From Bacilli bacterium (GTDB taxonomy: Bacteria; Bacillota_I; Bacilli_A; RF39; UBA660): a stretch of 64,000 nucleotides of DNA. Below the pieces are notes generated by a model. That model searched no databases and was not told the origin of the DNA. It worked only from the letters and a program-made list of their open reading frames with translations. Of the stretch, positions 3,399 through 62,047 are shown in pieces. The stretch is from the NCBI GenBank assembly GCA_017542465.1, contig JAFXXB010000032.1, positions 10,086 through 74,085 of the forward strand, read 5' to 3'. Positions within the stretch are counted from its first letter, which is position 1; the number at the start of each line of letters is the position of its first letter. The translations under genes were made by a program, and so were the position numbers.

Positions 3399-3472
3399 TG
3401 GAGGAGCCAGCAGGATTCGAACCAGCGCTCGGGGAGTTGCAGTCCCATGCCTTACCACTTGGCTATGGCTCC
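3399..3472 (-). tRNA. tRNA-Cys (anticodon GCA), CCA encoded
   Basis: The reverse complement folds as a cloverleaf: acceptor GGAGCCA/TGGCTCC, anticodon loop CUGCAAC, T-loop TTCGAAT, discriminator U73 typical of tRNA-Cys, and a 3' CCA. Confidence 0.85.
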
Positions 3473-8684: not shown

Positions 8685-9045
8685 TGGTGGAGCCGAGGAG
8701 AGTTGAACTCCTGTCCAAACTACTCTTATATACAGCATCTACAGGTTTATTTAGATCAAAATTTCATAAACACTAGGAATCTAACAACCATATGTTTACT
8801 ATCCTAATAAGTATTCATTCATATTATCTAGGAAAATAATATAAATATATTCTATATATATGAACCTTTTAATAAACTATAGAAAATCTATTAATCGGTG
8901 CCTCATTGCCAATCTTAGGCAAAAGCTAAGGCAGTATTATAATTATTGTTGTCAGTTATATTTAACTGTGTTGGAAGATTAGGTCTTACCTTACCACCTG
9001 CAACCATATCAAGACTGTAATCTGTCGAAACCAGAAAACGGCCCC
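8685..9045 (-). ncRNA. ssrA: tmRNA (ssrA)
   Basis: On the minus strand the 5' end is GGGGCCGTTTTCTGGTTTCGACAG and the 3' end is GGACAGGAGTTCAACTCTCCTCGGCTCCACCA (tRNA-Ala-like T-arm, acceptor and CCA). An internal tag frame reads GAC AAC AAT AAT TAT AAT ACT GCC TTA GCT TTT GCC TAA (DNNNYNTALAFA*). Confidence 0.9.
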
Positions 9046-21689: not shown

Positions 21690-21720
21690 ATAAAAAGAAG
21701 AGATTATTTAGTCTCTTCTT
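21690..21720 (-). terminator. rho-independent terminator of gyrA
   Basis: On the minus strand: AAGAAGAGA-CUAAAUAA-UCUCUUCUU followed by UUUAUU. The stop codon sits in the loop. Confidence 0.7.
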
Positions 21721-24295
21721 TTACTTCTTCAGCAGTTTCTACTGTTTCTTCAGTTATTTCTTCATCAGATTCATCATCATCTTTAGTTATAACTGATACT
21801 GTAGATACACATTGTTCATCTTTAAGGTTAATTAATCTTACACCTTGAGTCACTCTATTTAATTGAGATATTGAACTAATAGGTATTCTAATAATCATAC
21901 CTTGTTCTGTAACAATTAATAATGATTTATCATCATCAACTATCTTATGAGCAATCATACCACCAGTTTTATCAGTAGCTTTAATACTTAATACACCTTT
22001 AGATCCACGTTTTGTCTTTCTATAGTCTTTAACGAATGTTCTCTTACCATATCCATTCTTAGATATTACTAGTAAGTTATCATCATCAGTACCAACTTCC
22101 ATACCAGTACATTCACCACCATCAAGGTTTATACCCTTAACACCAGTAGCAGTTCTACCCATTGGTCTAATTTCAGATTCATCGAATACTACAATCTTAC
22201 CAGATGTAGATCCTAAGATTATATTCATATTACCATCAGTTAATTTAACATCTATTAATTCATCATCATCGTGTAATGTAATAGCTATCTTACCTGATTT
22301 TCTAATACTTTCATACTCTTCTATAGGTGTTTTCTTGATAATGCCTTGTTTAGTAGCAAATACTACATACTTCATTGATGTTTCACGTGAAACATTGATT
22401 ATTGCATTTACCTTTTCATCTTTATCTATTTGAATAAGATTTATAATTGGTAATCCTTTAGCATTTCTACCATATTCAGGTATTTCATATCCTTTTAATC
22501 TATATATTCTTCCTTTATTTGTGAATATACATACATAATCATGTGTTGATGAATTAATTAAGAATTTAACATAATCATCTTCATTAGTACTCATTCCTTT
22601 AACTCCTACACCACCACGATTTTGTTCACGATATGTGTTAGCAGATAAACGTTTAATATATCCTTTATCAGTTAAAGTAATTATAATATTTTCTTCTGGT
22701 ATTAAAGATTCATCCTCAATAAAATCTATAGCAGTCATATCAATATGAGTTCTTCTTTCATCACCAAATCTATTAGCTACATCTAATAATTCTTTCTTAA
22801 CTATATCTCTAACCATTTCGTCAGAGTTAAGAATAGAATTATAGTATTCTATATCTTTTAATAATCCATCACGTTCTTCTGTAACCTTATCTAATTCAAG
22901 TCCAGTTAACTTTCTTAAACGCATTTGTAGGATATCTTCAGATTGAATATCATCTAAACCATACTTTTCTTCAAGTTTAGTTTTAGCTTCAATATCAGTT
23001 CTAGATCCACGTATTATCTTAACAAAATCATCAATATTATTTATTGCTATGATTTCACCATCTAAGATATGTACTCTATTTTCAGCTTGTCCTAAATCAT
23101 ATCTAGTACGTCTAATTAATACTTCTTTTTAATAATCAGTATATTTAATTAAGATATCTCTTAAACCTAGAGTTCTAGGTATACCATTATCTAACATAAG
23201 TAAATTAATACCATATGTCATTTGTAATGGAGTTGATTTATATAAGTTATTTAAAATAACATTAGGGTTTGCATCTTTCTTACATGTAACAACTATTTTA
23301 ATACCATTTTCAATATTAGTTTCTTCATGTAAGTCTGCAATACCATCTATTACTTTATCTCTAACTAATTCAGCAATCTTAGTTTGTAATTCTTTTTTAT
23401 TAACTCCATAAGGAATTTCAGTAATAACAATTAAACTATGATTTTGTTTTTCTTGTATTTCTACTTTACCTCTTATAGTTATAGATCCTTTTCCAGTTCC
23501 ATATGCTTGTCTAATACCTGAATTTCCAAGGATTATAGCACCTGTAGGAAAATCTGGACCTTTAACATGAGTCATTAATTCATCTAATTCAATTTCAGGA
23601 TTATCTAGTACAGCTACACATCCATTAACTACTTCTCTTAAGTTATGTGGAGGTATATTTGTTGCCATACCTACTGCGATACCCATTGTTCCATTAACTA
23701 AAATATTAGGAAACTTAGATGGTAATACACTAGGTTCTTTTCTTGTTGCATCGAAGTTATCAACAAAATCTACTGTATCTTTCTTAATATCTCTAGTCAT
23801 TTCTAGTGAAATCTTAGAAAGTCTAGCTTCAGTATAACGCATGGCAGCAGCGCCATCACCATCCATAGAACCAAAGTTACCATGTCCATCAACTAAAGGA
23901 TATCTATATGAGAAATCTTGAGCCATACGAACCATAGCTTCATATATAGATGAATCACCATGTGGATGGTAAACACCCATTACGTTACCAACAGTTCTAG
24001 CTGATTTAACATGTGGTTTATCTGGAGTAATACCACTTTCATACATTGAATATAAAATTCTTCTATGTACTGGCTTTAAACCATCTCTTAGATCAGGTAA
24101 AGCACGGGCAACTATAACTGACATTGAATAATCTAGGAATGAATCCTTAATTTCTTTAACAATATCATTTTCAATCATTTGATCAGCAGGAAGAGTTGTT
24201 TCGATACCTTCAGGTATTTCTTCATCATCTTCGATATCTTCTATCTCTTCTTCAACTACTTTTTCTTCAATCATATCTAAATCTCTTTCGTCCAT
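21704..24295 (-). CDS. gyrA: DNA gyrase subunit A, one continuous frame interrupted by a single in-frame TAA at 23129-23131
   Basis: The track splits it into 23129..24295 (N-terminal part, with the active-site AAMRYTE) and 21704..22924 (CTD beta-pinwheel). The 68 codons between them are open in the same frame. They read [24 protein letters not shown]..., the conserved GyrA coiled-coil region. Confidence 0.85.
22379..22394. promoter_or_regulatory. parS site (16/16) inside the gyrA coding sequence
   Basis: TGTTTCACGTGAAACA (18-bp palindrome 22378-22395), encoding ..NVSRETS.. of the GyrA CTD. Confidence 0.75.
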
Positions 24296-27349: not shown

Positions 27350-27451
27350 AAAAATCCCCCTAAAATTATTTTTAAGGCTAAATTAGACCTTTTATGTGTA
27401 CCTATATACAAATATATTATATCACATTAAAAACATATTAAAAACAATTTA

Positions 27452-49925: not shown

Positions 49926-50368
49926 TGAAGATAGGAATAGCAACTGATCATAACGGGGTTAATGAAAAAAAGATATTAATTGAATATCTAACTAAGAAGG
50001 GATATGAGATGGTTGATTATTCACCTAAGAATGATCCTCTAGATGATTATCCAAAGTTTGCACATAAAGTATGTAAGGCAATTCAAAAGCATGAAGTAGA
50101 TTTAGGTATCTTATTATGTGGTACAGGTATTGGTATGGCAATAGCTGCAAATAAACATAGAGGTATTAGATGTGGTTTAGCATCTACAGTAGATGAAGCC
50201 AGACTTGCAAGAGGTCATAATAACGCTCAAATACTTGCTATGTCTCATAAAGAAGATATTGATTTATTAAGAGCAATGGCTTTAACATTTATAGAAGAAC
50301 ACTTCTATGCTGATGAAAGACATGTAAGAAGATTAAAAGAAATAGAAGAATACGAAGATGAGTATTAA
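49925..50368 (+). CDS. rpiB: ribose-5-phosphate isomerase B
   Basis: MKIGIATDHNG, ILLCGTGIGMAIAANK and ARGHNNAQILAM motifs. Confidence 0.9.
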   Translation: MKIGIATDHNGVNEKKILIEYLTKKGYEMVDYSPKNDPLDDYPKFAHKVCKAIQKHEVDLGILLCGTGIGMAIAANKHRGIRCGLASTVDEARLARGHNNAQILAMSHKEDIDLLRAMALTFIEEHFYADERHVRRLKEIEEYEDEY

Positions 50369-50561
50369 GATTTTAGTATATGGAATAATGTTATTAGTTT
50401 CTACATTTGCAGTATCAGGAATTAAGATAAATGGTATATTTAAAACTAATCATATCTGGGAAGCTAGATTCTTCACAGGATTATTGATTATGAGCATAAC
50501 TTATCTATCTGGTTCATTAATACTACAAATAATAGATGTATTTACTAATATTAATTTATAA
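50358..50561 (+). CDS. small integral membrane protein (possibly DUF1146/YwzB-like)
   Basis: 67 aa with two TM helices. Overlaps the rpiB end by 11 nt. Confidence 0.45.
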   Translation: MSIKILVYGIMLLVSTFAVSGIKINGIFKTNHIWEARFFTGLLIMSITYLSGSLILQIIDVFTNINL

Positions 50562-52865: not shown

Positions 52866-52890
52866 AAAAGAGACTTTATAGTCTCTTATT
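52866..52890. terminator. bidirectional terminator between recG and the paralog array
   Basis: aagagact-ttat-agtctctt flanked by A- and T-runs. Confidence 0.7.
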
Positions 52891-53661
52891 TTATTTAGTT
52901 TTTTTCTTACTGAAATCTGCACTAATTATGTACTTTCTTTTCCAAGAAGATGGATGTAGTATAGTATCAAAAGTATCATCAGTGAAATCTCTACCAGGAT
53001 AATATCTTGATTTAGATAGTTTATAACCAAGATCCTTTATAGAGCTAGCAAAATCAATAATATCTACAGTAATAATATTTTTATCAATATTAATTTCTTT
53101 TGGAAAATAATGTATGCTTTCTAGTTCGTCCGTGTCATATTCCTTATTAATATCTCTTCTTGTTTCATATATCCCATCTACTAATATAGAAGATGTATAT
53201 AATGTAGCATTTGTATATTCAATTGGTAAATAATTAAATATTAATTGTCCGTTCCAAAGTAATCTGGATAGTTAATTAGTAAATTCATCATCCAATTTTT
53301 TTTGTATTGTATAATTACAGTTATTTGTTTTTAAGTATTTATAGTTTAATATCAGTTCATCTAAATGAGCCACTTCACAGTAGAATTTAGGTTTAAAGTA
53401 TAATTCGATTTCGTCGAAAACATAATTTAAATCTCCTGACTTATCCACTATATCTTTCATAGTGCTCTCAAATTCTTTAACCCCTTCTTCAGTGTTAACG
53501 GAATTAACAATCTCTTTTTTGGTGATTGGTTTTCCTTCGATTTTAAATAATTTGGTTATGTCTTCTTCATCCTTATCGTAATTAATACTTACTAACACAT
53601 ATTTTTTTTCATGAGTTTTAATTAATTCATCTCTATATTTTTTTAATTCTTCAATATTCAT
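52891..53661 (-). pseudogene. array paralog 3, full-length frame interrupted by one in-frame TAA (53272-53274)
   Basis: The track ORF 53272..53661 (129 aa) continues in the same frame for 126 more codons without a stop. It ends ...SADFSKKKTK*, matching the ADFRNLKKTKK tails of paralogs 1 and 2. The total length of 256 codons equals that of the intact copies. Confidence 0.7.
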
Positions 53662-53683
53662 AAAAATCCCCCTTTTTTTAATA

Positions 53684-54454
53684 TTAATTATTCTTTTTAG
53701 TTTTCTTAAGATTTCTGAAATCTGCTAGAGCTATTCTTCTACCACAAGTATAATCATATGAATTAATAATTGAATGAATAAAGTTTTCATCATTATCCAT
53801 ATCAGGATTTATACTAATTCGTGAATAATAACCTCGGCTTTCTATAATTCTATTAAATTCTTCAATATTTACAATAATGTTCTTACTTTCTGTTTTTATA
53901 TTAGTACATTCTTTCCATTCACAATAATCTTCTTCGTTATATTCTTGAGTTATGGTATTTATATCTCTTTCAATTTCATTGTTATCATCATCTAATATTT
54001 CATATGCAACTACATCTGCATCATTAAAATTAATAGGTACATTACTAATAATTATGTTACCGTTTTTTATTAATGATCTTAAAAAATAATACATAGCTTT
54101 CTCATTTATTATTTTATTTGCTAGTTTATAAAACATATCAAATAAATCTCTGGCATAAGATATATTACAGTAGAATTTATAATTTGAATATAAATAAATT
54201 AAATCAAAATCATAACTACGCTCTACAGATTTATCCACTATATCAGCCATAACTCTTTCGAACTCTTTAACCCCTTCTTCAGTATTAGTGTTATTCATTA
54301 TTTCTTCTCTGGTCATTGGTTTACCTTCTATTTTAATAAATTCATCCCAATCTATATCTTCGTCTTCAGTAAAATCAATATTTATACAGATATATTTATT
54401 ATCTTTATTTCTTAATAATTTATTTCTATATTGTTTTAATTCTTCAACATTCAT
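53684..54454 (-). CDS. array paralog 2 (256 aa), unknown function
   Basis: MNVEELKQYRNKLL...NTNTEEGVKEFE...FYC N-domain shared with the neighbours. AGGGGGA RBS. Confidence 0.65.
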   Translation of the reverse strand: MNVEELKQYRNKLLRNKDNKYICINIDFTEDEDIDWDEFIKIEGKPMTREEIMNNTNTEEGVKEFERVMADIVDKSVERSYDFDLIYLYSNYKFYCNISYARDLFDMFYKLANKIINEKAMYYFLRSLIKNGNIIISNVPINFNDADVVAYEILDDDNNEIERDINTITQEYNEEDYCEWKECTNIKTESKNIIVNIEEFNRIIESRGYYSRISINPDMDNDENFIHSIINSYDYTCGRRIALADFRNLKKTKKNN

Positions 54455-54468
54455 AATAATCCCCCTAA

Positions 54469-55212
54469 TTATCTCTTTTTTGTTTTCTTAAGATTTCTAA
54501 GATCGGCAGTAAATGTTCGTCTTGTTACGTCTTCTCCCTCTTCCAGAATAGCCTCTTTAATTTGACAAATTATATCTACTTCTTGCCAATCCCAGTCAAT
54601 TGTTTTATATCCTAAGTCAGCAATTGCTTTATTATAATCTTCTAAATTAACTATTATTTCTTTACTTTTTAAAAACATTTCCTTGAATTCTTCCCAGTTT
54701 TCATCGCCATAATCATCTATGTTATATTGTTTAGTAATATCAGTATCATCAATATCATTATAGTATGATATTAATCTTGCATAATTAAACATAATTGGAA
54801 CATAATTGGTAATTATATCTCCGTTCTCTATACATTCATCCAGTAAATATGGTAATTCACGTACAGCTCGTTTATATCCTTCTTTATACAATAAGTCATG
54901 TAACTCAATTATTTTGTTTACTTTGCTTACTTCACAATAAAACTTTATATTTGAATATAAATAAATTTTTTTATAATCGTAATTAAATATTTTACTTTGA
55001 TTTATTACATCTACCATTGTTTTTTCGAATTCCCTAATACCTTCTTCGGTATTAGTGTTATTCATTATTTCAGTCTTAGTAAGTGGTTTACCATCAGTTT
55101 TGATGTAGTGTTTATGCTTTTTTAAATCATATCCTACTTTAACACAAATATATTGTTTTTCATGATTTTTTAATAACTCATTTCTATATTGTTTTAATTC
55201 TTCAATATTCAT
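54469..55212 (-). CDS. array paralog 1 (247 aa), unknown function
   Basis: MNIEELKQYRNELL...NTNTEEGIREFE...FYC N-domain. AGGGGGA RBS. Confidence 0.65.
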   Translation of the reverse strand: MNIEELKQYRNELLKNHEKQYICVKVGYDLKKHKHYIKTDGKPLTKTEIMNNTNTEEGIREFEKTMVDVINQSKIFNYDYKKIYLYSNIKFYCEVSKVNKIIELHDLLYKEGYKRAVRELPYLLDECIENGDIITNYVPIMFNYARLISYYNDIDDTDITKQYNIDDYGDENWEEFKEMFLKSKEIIVNLEDYNKAIADLGYKTIDWDWQEVDIICQIKEAILEEGEDVTRRTFTADLRNLKKTKKR

Positions 55213-55226
55213 AAAAATCCCCCTAA

Positions 55227-56225
55227 TTATTTCTTTTTCTTTTTATCTTCTTCATTTGGTTGAAATTTTCTTGATGTAATTACTTTATATTTTATGTTAA
55301 TTGTTTTTTTGTATAATGCTTCAAATAATCTTCTTTTAAATCTAATTAAGAATTGTTGATCATCTATTGGTATATTAGTAAATTTCAATTTATATTCATG
55401 TTCCATTATTTCTTGTTTGTTTTCTTTGTTTTCTTTTCTTATATCGTTTAATTCTTTATGATATTTAAATATTTCATATAACTCTTCATCAGAAAGATCA
55501 GCATAATCATCTAAATAACTATAATCAACGTTTCCATTTCCATCACGATGTATTTCTTCTTCATCAAATAAGAAGTCATCGTCATCATCATCCATACAAT
55601 CTACACCTAATAGTTTAGTTGCATACATACATAAGTCACGACCATCATAGTTACTATAATCTTTATCTGCTTCCATATCTTCAAATATCTTATGCACTAA
55701 CATCCATAGTTCATAAGAGTTTCCAATTAGATCCCCCTCATATTTATCCCAATCTTTAATATAAGAATCTATTTGTTTTTTTATAAAATCTATAAGATAT
55801 ATTCTTCCACTTACGTAATCAGCAAGATATTTGTCATAGACAGCAATTATATTACATATATATTGATTTATATCTACGTCTTTTAAATCTTCTTTATTCT
55901 CATAATCAATATGTAATTTGTCTTCTAGGTTAATTCTATATTTATCATTAAATATACTTATAACCATTTGCTTTGCAATAAAGTCTGTTATGATGCTGTC
56001 TTGTTTAAACTCATATTTTGCTAATGCGAAACCTAACCCCATATCTTTTTTGATTTCATCACTTTCTTGATTAAGTATTAATTGATAATCCATCATCTTT
56101 TTAAGATATAAATATTCTGCTCTAAGATAATCATTCTTTTCTCCAGTAGAAACATATTTTAATATAGTGTTTCTAAGTAGTACTTCATTTTTACTTGAAA
56201 TACATAAGTTGTCAAAATCAATCAT
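55227..56225 (-). CDS. hypothetical protein (332 aa) with a poly-Asp patch and a Lys-rich tail
   Basis: Long ORF 14 nt upstream of paralog 1. No family recognised. Confidence 0.55.
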   Translation of the reverse strand: MIDFDNLCISSKNEVLLRNTILKYVSTGEKNDYLRAEYLYLKKMMDYQLILNQESDEIKKDMGLGFALAKYEFKQDSIITDFIAKQMVISIFNDKYRINLEDKLHIDYENKEDLKDVDINQYICNIIAVYDKYLADYVSGRIYLIDFIKKQIDSYIKDWDKYEGDLIGNSYELWMLVHKIFEDMEADKDYSNYDGRDLCMYATKLLGVDCMDDDDDDFLFDEEEIHRDGNGNVDYSYLDDYADLSDEELYEIFKYHKELNDIRKENKENKQEIMEHEYKLKFTNIPIDDQQFLIRFKRRLFEALYKKTINIKYKVITSRKFQPNEEDKKKKK

Positions 56226-56427
56226 TTCATTTCATTCTTTCTAATTTGTATCAACGAATTGCCTTGTACTATAATCGAACTATTACTTATAGCTCCCCTT
56301 GATACATCTTTATATATTAGTAAATATATTTGTTGGCATCAGTATTTTTATTTATTTTTCCTTTCTTTAAATACTGCCCCTGTACAAAGGCAACAGATAA
56401 GAATATCACTTTAAATATATTTTGTCA

Positions 56428-56456
56428 AATTAAAAAACAAGGATTATTTCCTTGTT
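56428..56456 (-). terminator. rho-independent terminator of the 535-aa ORF
   Basis: On the minus strand: AACAAGGA-AAUAA-UCCUUGUU followed by UUUUAAUUU, overlapping the stop codon. Confidence 0.7.
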
Positions 56457-58042
56457 TTAATATCTGGTGTTTTTTCATCAGTTAATACTGAATCATAAGT
56501 TAATATATATCCAGCTATATCTAATCCATGTTCTTTTAAGAATTGTTTATATTCTTCACTCTTAGGATAATATATCTCTTTTTCTACTGCATCACTTACA
56601 ACTTCTTGGCTGATATTTAGTGATTTTAGGTGTTCTTTTTTATTATATACTTTGATATTATTTGTTGGAGTACTATGTGATTTCCAATCATATAATTTAC
56701 TCGGAGATATAGTCGTTAATGATCTAATAAATCCCTTACTATTATGTTCATTTAAATCATTCTCATCTCTTAATAAAACTAAATTATATCTTCTATTTGG
56801 TGATAGTAATCCATTCTTATCTTCTGTTACTATAAAACTATAATTAGGTTCAGGATCATTATTTCCTGCAAGTCTGTCTTTTTCTCGTCTAACTGATACT
56901 TCATAACCGGTTTCCATATTATATAATTCTTTAGTTGTTTCAAATGTATCTAAATATAAGAATGGTTTTACTTTAGTAAATAGTTTGGCTAAAACAACCG
57001 TATCTTCAGTTGTTAGTGTTTTATCTCCTATTGAATAATGTATATTATTTTCATGTGTATGGTAGAATAGTGAGTCCTCAATTCCAGTCGATATATTTGA
57101 AATATTTTTAATTGTAGTTATTGAATTTCTTTCTTGATTATCTAGTAAGTCAGCATAAATTGTTTTGTATAATCTATTACTTTTAATTGTTTTGTAATCT
57201 ATTCCTAATAAATGACATAACATATCTTCATCAAATTGAATATCAATGAATTTATTATTGTAATTTCCAATTAATACTTTATCATAATAAGAATTATAGT
57301 ATTTAAAGATTGCTTCTCTTACCATATCATATATTACTTGTACATCATCACTAGTGAATTCTAGATCATTATCTTTAATATAATCTTTTAAATTATATGT
57401 ATTATTATTTTCAGTTATTGTTTGACTTATTCCATTTTGACTATATGCACCAGCTAATATGCAATATTTATCATATTTATCTCTTTTAAAGAAATGAATT
57501 TTATCATATTTATATAATGAATTCTTTATATAATTTGTGATTATATTCATTTTATCTTGTGAATCTGAATCACCTATTTGGCTATTATTTATTGTAGTGA
57601 TTAATTCAGGGATTTGTATTTCATCATATAAATATTTAATAATATCATTAGTTCTTGAATCCAGATTATTTACGTTTGTAATACTTGTATCGTTAGGATT
57701 TTGTTTATATGTATTCATAGCTATTGATAATAATAAACTATCAATGTTTACTCCTAATCTCTGTTCTATTTCATCAGATATACTGTCTAAAAATAGATAC
57801 TTCTTTCTTTCAATTTCTTTAATTTTTTCTTTACTATCTATATACTGTTGAATTACTTTTTCATATTTTCTTCTATCATATTCTTTTTCAGGTGTTACAT
57901 ATAGCTCTGGGAATACTGTATAGAAGTCTCTCGTTTCTTGAGTCTCTTCTTTAATAATATCATTTATACCTTGTTGTCTGATTTTATGTGCAGCATCATT
58001 TTTTTTGATTTTGTTAATATCACCAGCAAAAACTACAGCCAT
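56444..58042 (-). CDS. hypothetical protein (about 532 aa), no recognisable domain
   Basis: Long ORF. The likely start is the ATG at 58042 (MAVVFAGD), 5 nt after a gaggtgg RBS and downstream of a TGTTATAAT extended -10. Confidence 0.6.
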   Translation of the reverse strand: MAVVFAGDINKIKKNDAAHKIRQQGINDIIKEETQETRDFYTVFPELYVTPEKEYDRRKYEKVIQQYIDSKEKIKEIERKKYLFLDSISDEIEQRLGVNIDSLLLSIAMNTYKQNPNDTSITNVNNLDSRTNDIIKYLYDEIQIPELITTINNSQIGDSDSQDKMNIITNYIKNSLYKYDKIHFFKRDKYDKYCILAGAYSQNGISQTITENNNTYNLKDYIKDNDLEFTSDDVQVIYDMVREAIFKYYNSYYDKVLIGNYNNKFIDIQFDEDMLCHLLGIDYKTIKSNRLYKTIYADLLDNQERNSITTIKNISNISTGIEDSLFYHTHENNIHYSIGDKTLTTEDTVVLAKLFTKVKPFLYLDTFETTKELYNMETGYEVSVRREKDRLAGNNDPEPNYSFIVTEDKNGLLSPNRRYNLVLLRDENDLNEHNSKGFIRSLTTISPSKLYDWKSHSTPTNNIKVYNKKEHLKSLNISQEVVSDAVEKEIYYPKSEEYKQFLKEHGLDIAGYILTYDSVLTDEKTPDIKTRK

Positions 58043-58120
58043 ACATACCACCTCTATTATAATAATTATAACATGATATTTATTTGTATTTATTTATATA
58101 ATTATTTGTTTACATTTATA

Positions 58121-58150
58121 AATAAAAAAAGGGACTCCCATAAGGGAGTC
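58121..58150 (-). terminator. orphan minus-strand rho-independent terminator upstream of the 535-aa ORF promoter
   Basis: On the minus strand: GACUCCC-UUAU-GGGAGUC then CCUUUUUUUAUUU. No U-run follows on the plus strand. Confidence 0.6.
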
Positions 58151-58261
58151 ATTCAGAGGAACAATCATAACTAGTTTTCTTGCTTTACTATTAGTGTAAA
58201 TTAATAAAAAACTCTACTCACGACTTTAAACTAAATGTTATAATTATACTAGGAGGCTGTT

Positions 58262-58747
58262 ATGGAAAAAAGACCAATAAATGGATATAGTGTAAACAAT
58301 GAACTAATTTCTGGATCAGAATTTTATGGAGAGATTGGAACATTACTTGGTGTAATTGAAAAAGATGAAAAACTTTATGCCATTATTGAAGATAAAAATG
58401 GTAGATTATTTTCTAAAAATGTTGTTATTGAGACAAATGTAGTAATGACTAAAAATGGACCTGCTGTTACTGAAACAGTATATGCCGGCGAAAAAAATAT
58501 TCCTATACCAGAAAGTACGGAAGACTATATAAGAGATGGAATAGCAAAATATAACAATTTAGATTTCTTATATGAAGGAGAGGTAAATATTGATTTGGCT
58601 TTAGCTCAAAATGATTCCTTTTTTGTAGGTGAAGATAATTTTATAGATTATTTAAGTGATTTAAAGAAAAGAAATCCTGCAACTCCATTATTAGATAGTT
58701 TAAAAGAATATCCATATGAACAAGAACAACATTTCAATCGTATATAA
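58262..58747 (+). CDS. hypothetical protein (161 aa)
   Basis: aggagg RBS and a TGTTATAAT extended -10 upstream. No family recognised. Confidence 0.55.
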   Translation: MEKRPINGYSVNNELISGSEFYGEIGTLLGVIEKDEKLYAIIEDKNGRLFSKNVVIETNVVMTKNGPAVTETVYAGEKNIPIPESTEDYIRDGIAKYNNLDFLYEGEVNIDLALAQNDSFFVGEDNFIDYLSDLKKRNPATPLLDSLKEYPYEQEQHFNRI

Positions 58748-58766
58748 TTAATTATTAAAATATTAT

Positions 58767-58796
58767 AAGGGCTTAGGCTCTTTTTTGTTTTTTATC
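58767..58796 (+). terminator. rho-independent terminator
   Basis: aagggc-ttag-gctctt followed by ttttgtttttt. Confidence 0.55.
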
Positions 58797-58797
58797 A

Positions 58798-58898
58798 TAA
58801 AAAAAGTGGAGCCTTTCGGCTCCTTCAGGGGGTTTTGGTTGATATACTCTAACATTGGTTAAATCGTTAGAGTCTACCGGCTATGTTTACCATAGCCT
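58798..58898 (-). ncRNA. candidate small RNA 'B' (about 100 nt) with a C-rich single-stranded stretch
   Basis: Minus-strand promoter TTGATT, 17 nt, TAATAT. Hairpins GGCUAUG/CAUAGCC and ACUCUAAC/GUUAGAGU. An unpaired CAACCAAAACCCCCUGAA stretch. Terminator GGAGCC-GAAA-GGCUCC followed by UUUUUUU. Confidence 0.55.
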
Positions 58899-61150: not shown

Positions 61151-62047
61151 ATGAATAAAAAGGAATTAGATTTTACTAAAGTAGCTAATAAAGTATCTAT
61201 TATAGCTATATTAGCTAATTTAATCTTAGCTATATTTAAATTATTAGCAGGTATTATAGCTCATTCGAGTGCTATGATAAGTGATGCTATTCATTCTGCT
61301 TCGGATGTATTTAGTACTATAGTTGTAATAATAGGTATTAAATTATCAGGTAAAGAAGCAGATAAAGATCATCCATATGGCCATGAGAGAATTGAATGTG
61401 TTGCTGCTATATTATTATCTATAGTATTATTTGCTACTGGATTAGGAATATTTATAAATGCTTTAAAAACAATTATAAATGGTGAATATAATAATATGGA
61501 AGTACCTGGATTACTTGCTTTAATAGCTGCTATAGTATCTATTATTATTAAAGAATTAATGTATTGGTATACAAGATATTATGCTAAACAAATTAATTCA
61601 TCCGCTTTAATGGCAGATGCATGGCATCATAGATCAGATTCTTTATCATCTATAGGCGCTTTAATAGGTATTATATTTGCTAGATTAGGTTTTCCTATCA
61701 TGGATTCAGTTGCTAGTATAATAATATTTATATTTATTATTAAAGCATCAATAGAAATATTTAATGATGCTGTTAGTAAAGTAGTAGATCATTCATGTGA
61801 TGAAGAAATAGAAAATGAAATATATAACTATGTTATTAACCATAAAGATGTTATAGATATAGATCTATTAAGAACAAGATTATTTGGTAATAAAATATAT
61901 GTTGATTTAGAGATACAATTAAAAGGTGATTTAACATTAAATAAAGCACATAAAATAGCTGAAGAAATACATGATGATATTGAAGACAAGTTTAGTGATG
62001 TTAAACATGTAATGGTACATGTTAATCCATCAAATAAAAAGAAATAA
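61151..62047 (+). CDS. cation diffusion facilitator (CDF) family metal efflux transporter
   Basis: 298 aa. HSASDVFS and DHPYGHERIE motifs, six TM helices and a cytoplasmic C-domain. Confidence 0.88.
   Translation: MNKKELDFTKVANKVSIIAILANLILAIFKLLAGIIAHSSAMISDAIHSASDVFSTIVVIIGIKLSGKEADKDHPYGHERIECVAAILLSIVLFATGLGIFINALKTIINGEYNNMEVPGLLALIAAIVSIIIKELMYWYTRYYAKQINSSALMADAWHHRSDSLSSIGALIGIIFARLGFPIMDSVASIIIFIFIIKASIEIFNDAVSKVVDHSCDEEIENEIYNYVINHKDVIDIDLLRTRLFGNKIYVDLEIQLKGDLTLNKAHKIAEEIHDDIEDKFSDVKHVMVHVNPSNKKK

Follow-up and report, generated by a model that had tools for sequence, protein, structure and literature searches.

The tandem immunity paralogues of type VII secretion systems (T7SS), esaG (DUF600) in Staphylococcus aureus and tipC in Streptococcus, recombine via blocks conserved at the 5' and 3' gene ends (Garrett et al. 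2022, PMC9484751). The orphan immunity or toxin-tip cassettes of Rhs and contact-dependent inhibition (CDI) loci are also serial cassettes 3' of a larger gene, located in strain-variable islands and exchanged by homologous recombination (PMC3150448, PMC3967940). Here we describe an array of three tandem paralogues in a 64,000-nt stretch of DNA, referred to below as the window, from the metagenome-assembled genome of an uncultured rumen bacterium annotated as "Bacilli bacterium" (locus tags IKP76_03675-03700, proteins MBR6073400-405; GC content ~25%). The original prediction for this array saw in it the signature of a conflict locus, i.e., polymorphic toxin/immunity cassettes, defence specificity modules or anti-defence genes. 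The array proved real, although its description was wrong in part, and it behaves like the arrays of immunity cassettes; however, neither a toxin partner nor a known family was found for it. Our tentative reading is that the paralogues serve as immunity-like cassettes, binding or neutralising a partner in the cytoplasm, and that tandem copies recombine to generate diversity. This function we infer; the anatomy and evolutionary dynamics of the array are documented below.

The locus resembles the esaG and tipC arrays in being a string of non-identical cytoplasmic paralogues in a member of the Firmicutes, in having conserved blocks at the 5' and 3' gene ends around a variable middle, and in gaining, losing and replacing cassettes by recombination between tandem copies, with copy number varying among strains; a conserved 5' block, a conserved tail and the swap of a cassette over one repeat period were all found. 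In contrast to EsaG and TipC, the proteins of the window are larger (~250 aa), and the two groups share neither sequence nor fold, an EsaG chain appearing only at a Foldseek E value of 6.1 with a first, weaker model. A further difference from the esaG and tipC arrays is that no genes for a T7SS or a toxin could be recognised in the island around the array, WXG100-like and DUF4176 neighbours being present only at a distant homologue, P0012, and that many homologues are single-copy genes in housekeeping settings. The likeness to the Rhs and CDI cassettes lies in the serial arrangement 3' of a larger gene, the strain-variable island and the exchange by homologous recombination, but toxins of the Rhs, CdiA or LXG type are lacking here, the copies have no toxin C-terminal fragments between them, and each of the three brings its own ribosome-binding site and start codon.

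Anatomy and evolution of the array

As predicted, three consecutive paralogues lie on the minus strand between positions 52891 and 55212, with intergenic gaps of 14 and 22 nt and with an open reading frame (ORF) of 332 aa another 14 nt upstream of copy 1 (Table 1). Their homology is clear, with copy 2 matching copy 1 at an E value of 6e-42 in a search of 5.8 billion proteins. The gene sizes given earlier, 247, 256 and 256 codons, hold for copies 1 and 2, which are intact, but not for copy 3, in which an in-frame TAA at codon 130 leaves a 129-aa ORF followed by an open remnant of 126 codons. An AGGGGGA site, previously described as identical and unusual, does sit 5-6 nt 5' of all three starts; it is neither unique, being found also ahead of recF (27355-27361), nor invariant, since strain L006 has AAGGGGA before copy 2.

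The predicted conservation of the N-terminal module and the shared basic tail were both confirmed, with identities between paralogues of 53-55% in the N-domain (residues 1-96) and 67-83% in the tail, compared to 26-31% in the middle and C-terminal part. The C-half, however, has not diverged almost beyond recognition, as had been stated: it aligns throughout and retains the common motifs NG..I...VPI.F and IIVNIE(D/E)(F/Y)N..I..LGY, which recur in distant homologues. Over the first 12 codons, 83-100% of third positions agree between paralogues, compared to 39-63% elsewhere. The conserved 5' block consists of the ribosome-binding site and the first ~11 codons, and its third-position pattern is the one expected from gene conversion.

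Comparison with strain L006 revealed the replacement of a whole cassette. At the nucleotide level, the two strains share 97-100% identity (~98% across the flanks) in the last part of the 332-aa gene and in copies 2 and 3, whereas copy 1 and the L006 gene at the same position (P0002) share ~60% nucleotide and 47% amino acid identity. The exchanged tract differs at 40% of positions, compared to 1.9% along the following 1371 nt and 3 of the 88 upstream positions; with limits at ~55180 and ~54433, both breakpoints therefore fall in the conserved 5' block of successive copies. The mechanism of this swap is the one described for esaG and tipC. Altogether, the array evolves by tandem duplication, by in-register recombination between near-identical 5' ends that replaces whole cassettes, and by decay, seen in the nonsense mutation of copy 3.

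Ratios of nonsynonymous to synonymous substitution (dN/dS), determined by the Nei-Gojobori method, were 0.40 for copy 2 (versus L006) and 0.26-0.41 for copy 3 between strains. Between paralogues, they were 0.12-0.46 in the N-domain and 0.54-0.87 in the C-half, with synonymous sites near saturation. The between-strain values of 0.26-0.41 mark the paralogues as working genes under moderate constraint. Diversification focused on one domain had been proposed; dN/dS was below 1 in all comparisons, the C-half being less constrained than the N-domain, and no sign of positive selection emerged.

The stop in copy 3 is genuine for the strain of the window: five contigs, which come from different samples and assemblers and match the window at 100% identity along as much as 8.9 kb, reproduce it. 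At codon 130, strains L006 and L028/L029 carry TAC (Tyr); the copy 3 orthologue of L028/L029 is a full-length protein of 256 aa (P0037), and the L006 version leaves its contig after 201 codons. Because two other strains have the Tyr codon, the nonsense mutation is derived and recent. The remnant 3' of the stop is still matched by the family hidden Markov model (HMM) at an E value of 5.7e-9. Copy 3 has the hallmarks of a pseudogene, i.e., a premature stop compared to intact orthologues, observed in independent data.

A second interrupted gene was observed in the window. A lone TAA in frame (23129-23131) takes the place of a conserved Gln in gyrA (21704-24295, minus strand) and divides the gene into open stretches of 397 and 474 codons; the site is CAA in relatives and aligns to "AHQKEV" of the L023 GyrA. 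This TAA could be a consensus error, a population variant or a stop that is read through. Because gyrA also carries an in-frame TAA, we considered that TAA might be read through or suppressed in this organism, in which case copy 3 would not be a pseudogene and all three full-length proteins would be made. The essential nature of gyrA, the fact that gyrA and copy 3 are the sole interrupted long ORFs across the 64-kb window, and the 126 codons that stay open past the copy 3 stop are all consistent with this alternative. We nonetheless judge it quite unlikely: TAA terminates 39 of the 52 long ORFs, those of copies 1 and 2 included, the amino acids replaced differ between the two sites (Tyr in copy 3, Gln in gyrA), and the gyrA stop may be a consensus error. 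A general reassignment of the codon was rejected on the same count of TAA as the normal stop.

A small family of soluble acidic proteins

When the 5.8 billion proteins were searched by a word-indexed method, only proteins of the window's own lineage were matched. With HMMER, an exhaustive profile search covering 1.84 billion representative proteins yielded 13 matches, all of 129-256 aa, nine of which are full-length distant relatives (P0005-P0013; 201-241 aa, 20-26% identity). These relatives share the motifs MNIEELK.LKE.LE..KYV, ENT(E/D)E..K.(C/F)E, GIPFD.I.L.S...LC, YVP..F and V.GIV(N/D)..EF..K...LGY, and they end in an (A/V)DF strand and a tail that is mostly basic. All family members are acidic, with isoelectric points of 4.6-5.3 and net charges of -8 to -21. 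In agreement with the original prediction, the paralogues contain no transmembrane segment or signal-like stretch (maximum 19-residue hydropathy below 1.6), and the other members are likewise without hydrophobic segments. A scan of GTDB genomes with the close-family profile returned nothing, a search of 185,579 GTDB species genomes with a 4-member alignment returned two loci only (L018 and L019), and a scan of JGI metagenomes found no family member. The family to which the paralogues belong is very small and unnamed; its members are soluble, acidic and 200-256 aa long and come from low-GC gut Firmicutes.

The earlier statement that no family could be recognised also stood up to library scans, profile searches of the PDB and structure prediction. 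No Pfam match was obtained at an E value of 0.001 or below for any of 12 members, no convincing NCBIfam match for the paralogues and their neighbours, no PHROG match for copies 1 and 3 at the default cut-off of 0.001, no PADLOC-DB v2 match for seven island proteins at an E value of 1 or below, and no match in a PDB sequence-profile search with the family. Three marginal candidates were rejected. Copy 2 matched phrog_15380, whose function is unassigned, at an E value of 0.00055 and 21 bits, which was treated as chance; a weak LPD14 match of copy 1 (E = 0.12) was followed up and dismissed; and the N-domains of two distant members matched PF24911 (YfjL_C), the C-terminal domain of the Escherichia coli anti-phage protein AbpA/YfjL, at E values of ~0.002, but the best score of 19.2 bits is below the gathering threshold of 28 bits and was likewise treated as chance. 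Alignment of the family profile to AbpA/YfjL by hhalign gave a probability of 0.2%.

An AlphaFold2 model based on a 12-sequence alignment (predicted local distance difference test score, 80.1; predicted template modelling score, 0.77) predicts two alpha/beta lobes, a disordered acidic loop at approximately residues 150-183 and a disordered tail; all five models scored 76-80 on the former measure. Foldseek searches of the PDB (two models) and of BFVD returned no neighbour, the best hits having E values of ~1-3 and template modelling scores below 0.2. The predicted two-lobed alpha/beta fold is unmatched among solved structures or viral predicted structures.

Copy number in the family is one in L007, L018, L019 and L020-23, two in L010-14, and three in the window and L006. 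The single copy of L007 has der and spoVIF on either side, and that of L023 follows efp and a 463-aa membrane-anchored orphan; L018 and L019 have one copy each at a contig end. In a human-gut species (L020-22), the gene is mostly single-copy and lies in the order spoVT, a 333-aa orphan, the gene and metG, with 98-99% identity across more than 50 contigs. In L010-14, from the cluster of the human-gut protein, a second tandem paralogue is present, with identities of 60% (N part) and 43% (C part). The expectation of varying copy number in related genomes was upheld by this range of one to three, but the mostly single-copy, highly conserved human-gut homologue partly fits the pattern of single-copy, syntenic housekeeping genes that had been named beforehand as evidence against a conflict locus. 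Upstream ORFs of 312-463 aa in four lineages are similar in size, with no BLAST similarity to one another or to the 332- and 535-aa ORFs of the window.

Both GTDB members are located within 300 nt of a contig end (L018 292-1029 and L019 153-866), a location consistent with assemblies breaking where paralogue arrays are repeated or variable.

The rumen homologue P0012 has as neighbours HTH_3, sigma70_r4 and excisionase-like HTH_17 proteins and a type IV secretion coupling protein (T4CP)-like fragment. Its contig (L025 7460-15542; L026 1-406) also encodes a WXG100-like 203-aa protein, a 1722-aa transglutaminase-core protein, DUF4176 and ADP-ribosylglycohydrolase proteins, one of 275 aa in L025 and a 996-aa protein with this domain in L026. 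These surroundings are possibly a T7SS or polymorphic-toxin module on a mobile element.

ArdA and Ocr, the acidic anti-restriction DNA mimics, are small, very acidic, soluble and associated with mobile DNA. The family is like them in size, acidity and solubility, with an association with mobile DNA for one homologue only, and it might have been cargo of mobile elements, anti-defence proteins that are possibly DNA-mimic-like in the manner of ArdA and Ocr, that counter restriction or other defences of the host and that were later domesticated on chromosomes. We regard this origin as unlikely. It would fit the net charge of -8 to -21 in a genome of 25% GC, the predicted acidic loop, the element around P0012 and the location of the window array in a variable island. 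However, no homologue was found in scans of IMG/VR or by tblastn against INPHARED phages and PLSDB plasmids, solved anti-restriction proteins share neither sequence nor predicted fold with the family, and the island in the window has no integrase, transfer genes or composition shift.

The island downstream of recG

The replication origin is inside the window, with dnaA, dnaN and recF on the minus strand at 26.2-30.7 kb, yidC, mnmE and mnmG on the plus strand from 31.5 kb, and a sign change of the GC skew near 30-31 kb. The array is on the minus strand, ~22-24 kb rightward of the origin, and is therefore head-on to replication, as had been claimed. It is located in a lineage-specific island of orphan genes downstream of recG, because none of 80 related recG loci (RecG identity, 48-83%) encodes a family member. 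The order 5' of recG (murA, GT4, ATP-grasp, rpiB, a 67-aa gene and recG) is kept in relatives, and the gene content after recG differs lineage by lineage: L030 has histidine-phosphatase-like and NlpC/P60-like genes, and L034 has a 460-aa orphan and then the major facilitator superfamily (MFS) gene within 1.5 kb, compared to 6.1 kb in the window.

Table 1. Coordinates of the array and of the features of its island in the window
Feature	Position	Strand	Description
Copy 1	54469-55212	-	247 aa, intact; P0003 (identical), NCBI MBR6073402.1; cassette that differs between strains
Copy 2	53684-54454	-	256 aa, intact; P0001, MBR6073401.1
Copy 3, N-terminal ORF	53272-53661	-	129 aa, ends at premature TAA 53272-53274; P0004, MBR6073400.1
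Copy 3, C-half remnant	52891-53271	-	126 in-frame codons and original stop; no start codon of its own
AGGGGGA Shine-Dalgarno, copy 1	55218-55224	-	Motif match
AGGGGGA Shine-Dalgarno, copy 2	54460-54466	-	Motif match
AGGGGGA Shine-Dalgarno, copy 3	53667-53673	-	Motif match
Tract exchanged between strains	54433-55180	-	748 nt (repeat period, 758 nt); spans copy 1 codon 11 to copy 2 codon 8
Lineage-specific island of orphan genes	52866-58790		~5.9 kb, between recG and the conserved small-RNA-like element and MFS gene
332-aa acidic orphan ORF	55227-56225	-	MBR6073403.1; first gene of putative operon
Promoter-like site	56400-56428	-	TTGACA-17-TATTCT, extended TG; 5' of 332-aa ORF; consensus match only
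Bidirectional terminator-like hairpin	52868-52887		Common to recG (+) and array (-)
535-aa orphan ORF	56444-58051	-	532 aa from ATG; island neighbour; own terminator-like hairpin 56434-56458
161-aa orphan gene	58262-58747	+	Between leader of 535-aa ORF and small-RNA-like element

Signal scans, which placed a promoter-like site 5' of the 332-aa gene, a terminator after the 535-aa gene and a terminator shared with recG, suggest that the 332-aa gene and the three copies form an operon. The 332-aa ORF had no Pfam, PHROG, NCBIfam, PADLOC or PDB match and is unrelated to the paralogue family (hhalign probability, 0.15). The 535-aa ORF matched only itself among the 5.8 billion proteins and had no Pfam, PHROG, PADLOC, PDB or phage match. 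With one orphan in the same operon, the other adjoining it and the locus varying among strains, the paralogues could in principle be the specificity subunits of a defence system that has escaped recognition and that also includes the 332-aa protein, the 535-aa protein or both. We find this improbable, as homologues of neither orphan adjoin family members elsewhere, no nuclease, ATPase or other effector domain was found, and the 535-aa gene has its own terminator and is seen in this lineage only.

At the far end of the island, a small-RNA-like element of ~93 nt (~58800-58892, minus strand) is preceded by a promoter-like site (58928-58899) and ends in a terminator hairpin (58823-58808). It is present in dozens of related recG loci, usually directly 3' of recG and in the same direction. 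Its core, TATATCAACCAAAACCCCCTGAAG, is invariant and lies between hairpins that show some compensatory changes; this C-rich core stays single-stranded in the predicted fold, and the element matched no Rfam family. When the core was compared with 63 translation-initiation regions of the window, the best pairing was with recF, copy 1 and copy 2, largely because their Shine-Dalgarno sites are G-rich. The leader or promoter region of the 535-aa ORF (58059-58159, with a GC-rich hairpin at 58133-58150 and then a T-run) is 77% identical to positions 13322-13413 of L030. There this leader-like segment abuts the small-RNA-like element, while in the window the 161-aa orphan gene intervenes, which suggests a further insertion.

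Other features of the window include a NiCo (nickel/cobalt) riboswitch (RF02683; 61029-61104, plus strand; 55 bits) directly 5' of a cation-efflux (CDF) transporter gene (61151-62047), a known arrangement, as well as genes for transfer-messenger RNA (8685-9045, minus strand; tag peptide DNNNYNTALAFA) and tRNA-Cys (3399-3472, minus strand). The 67-aa hydrophobic ORF between rpiB and recG (50358-50561, plus strand) overlaps the end of rpiB and is found between these two genes in all close relatives at 36-82% identity; it is probably a real small membrane protein.

Proposed function and its implications

If the paralogues are the immunity-like cassettes that we tentatively propose, their products would be cytoplasmic binding or neutralising modules, immunity- or antidote-like in character. 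The better-conserved N-lobe would be a common scaffold, and partner choice would lie with the C-lobe, which is less constrained and includes the disordered acidic loop, so that a cell with several different cassettes would cover several variants of the partner, which may be a toxin or another invading protein. The broader interpretation as a conflict locus, with which the original prediction had ended, gains from the lineage-specific island, the cassette swap, the copy number of one to three, the decaying copy and the mobile, T7SS-type context of P0012, and it loses from the absence of toxin or defence domains and of phage or plasmid homologues, dN/dS values below 1 and a conservation gradient that is family-wide.

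Several results weigh against the immunity-like reading. No toxin or trafficking domain was found beside the array, where the 332- and 535-aa ORFs are orphans; library scans of these two ORFs and of the paralogues turned up no domain linked to toxins, defence or anti-defence; and no match to a known immunity family (DUF600, TipC, Imm/SUKH and others) was obtained by Pfam, PDB profile or fold. No conserved partner gene was found across lineages. The human-gut homologue is 98-99% conserved over many samples between spoVT and metG, and other homologues lie by der and spoVIF or by efp. The decrease in conservation from N to C holds among distant single-copy homologues as well (32% versus 22%); it is a property of the family rather than of the array and may reflect merely a different structural constraint. 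No comparison gave a dN/dS above 1, in what is a weak test given the near-saturated synonymous sites of the paralogues, and the comparison between strains is based on one 2.2-kb contig and two contigs of less than 0.9 kb.

The main rival is that the family is an ordinary, lineage-restricted accessory protein, e.g., of sporulation or stationary phase, with neutral tandem duplication and a C-half that is merely less constrained; we consider this possible, if doubtful. It draws support from the conserved single-copy homologues in stable settings of spore-forming gut Firmicutes (spoVT-333aa-X-metG, der-X-spoVIF and efp-463aa-X-gerE/spoIIIAH, where X is the family member), from the family-wide gradient, from dN/dS below 1 throughout and from the uniformly negative searches for defence, toxin, phage and plasmid matches. 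On the other hand, the family is patchy, being missing from the closest relatives and, apart from the two loci, from the GTDB species genomes searched; no synteny is kept between lineages; and the replacement of a whole cassette in near-identical strains, together with the polymorphism in copy number, is unexpected for a neutral housekeeping gene. The anti-defence and defence-specificity readings are weaker, given that no phage, plasmid or effector link was found.

A more far-reaching version of the immunity-like reading, which we offer as speculative and unlikely in its entirety, is that the paralogues represent a new class of cytoplasmic proteins, with a new fold, that provide specificity or immunity in gut Firmicutes. 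Their cassettes would be shuffled in register via the ribosome-binding site and first codons, and their AGGGGGA sites might be controlled by the clade-conserved small RNA through its invariant single-stranded motif, AAAACCCCCUGAAG, which is complementary to them.

Should the family prove to be an ordinary accessory protein, it would be an unnamed family that deserves a DUF entry, with little beyond. Two by-products of the analysis, the clade-wide conserved C-rich small RNA beside recG and the in-frame stop of gyrA, may equal the array in use. Should the paralogues be immunity or specificity proteins, they would constitute a new family and fold used in conflict between bacteria, or between element and host, among the little-studied, uncultured Bacilli of rumen and gut, and the array would provide a clean natural case of whole-cassette exchange between tandem paralogues beyond the known T7SS immunity families.

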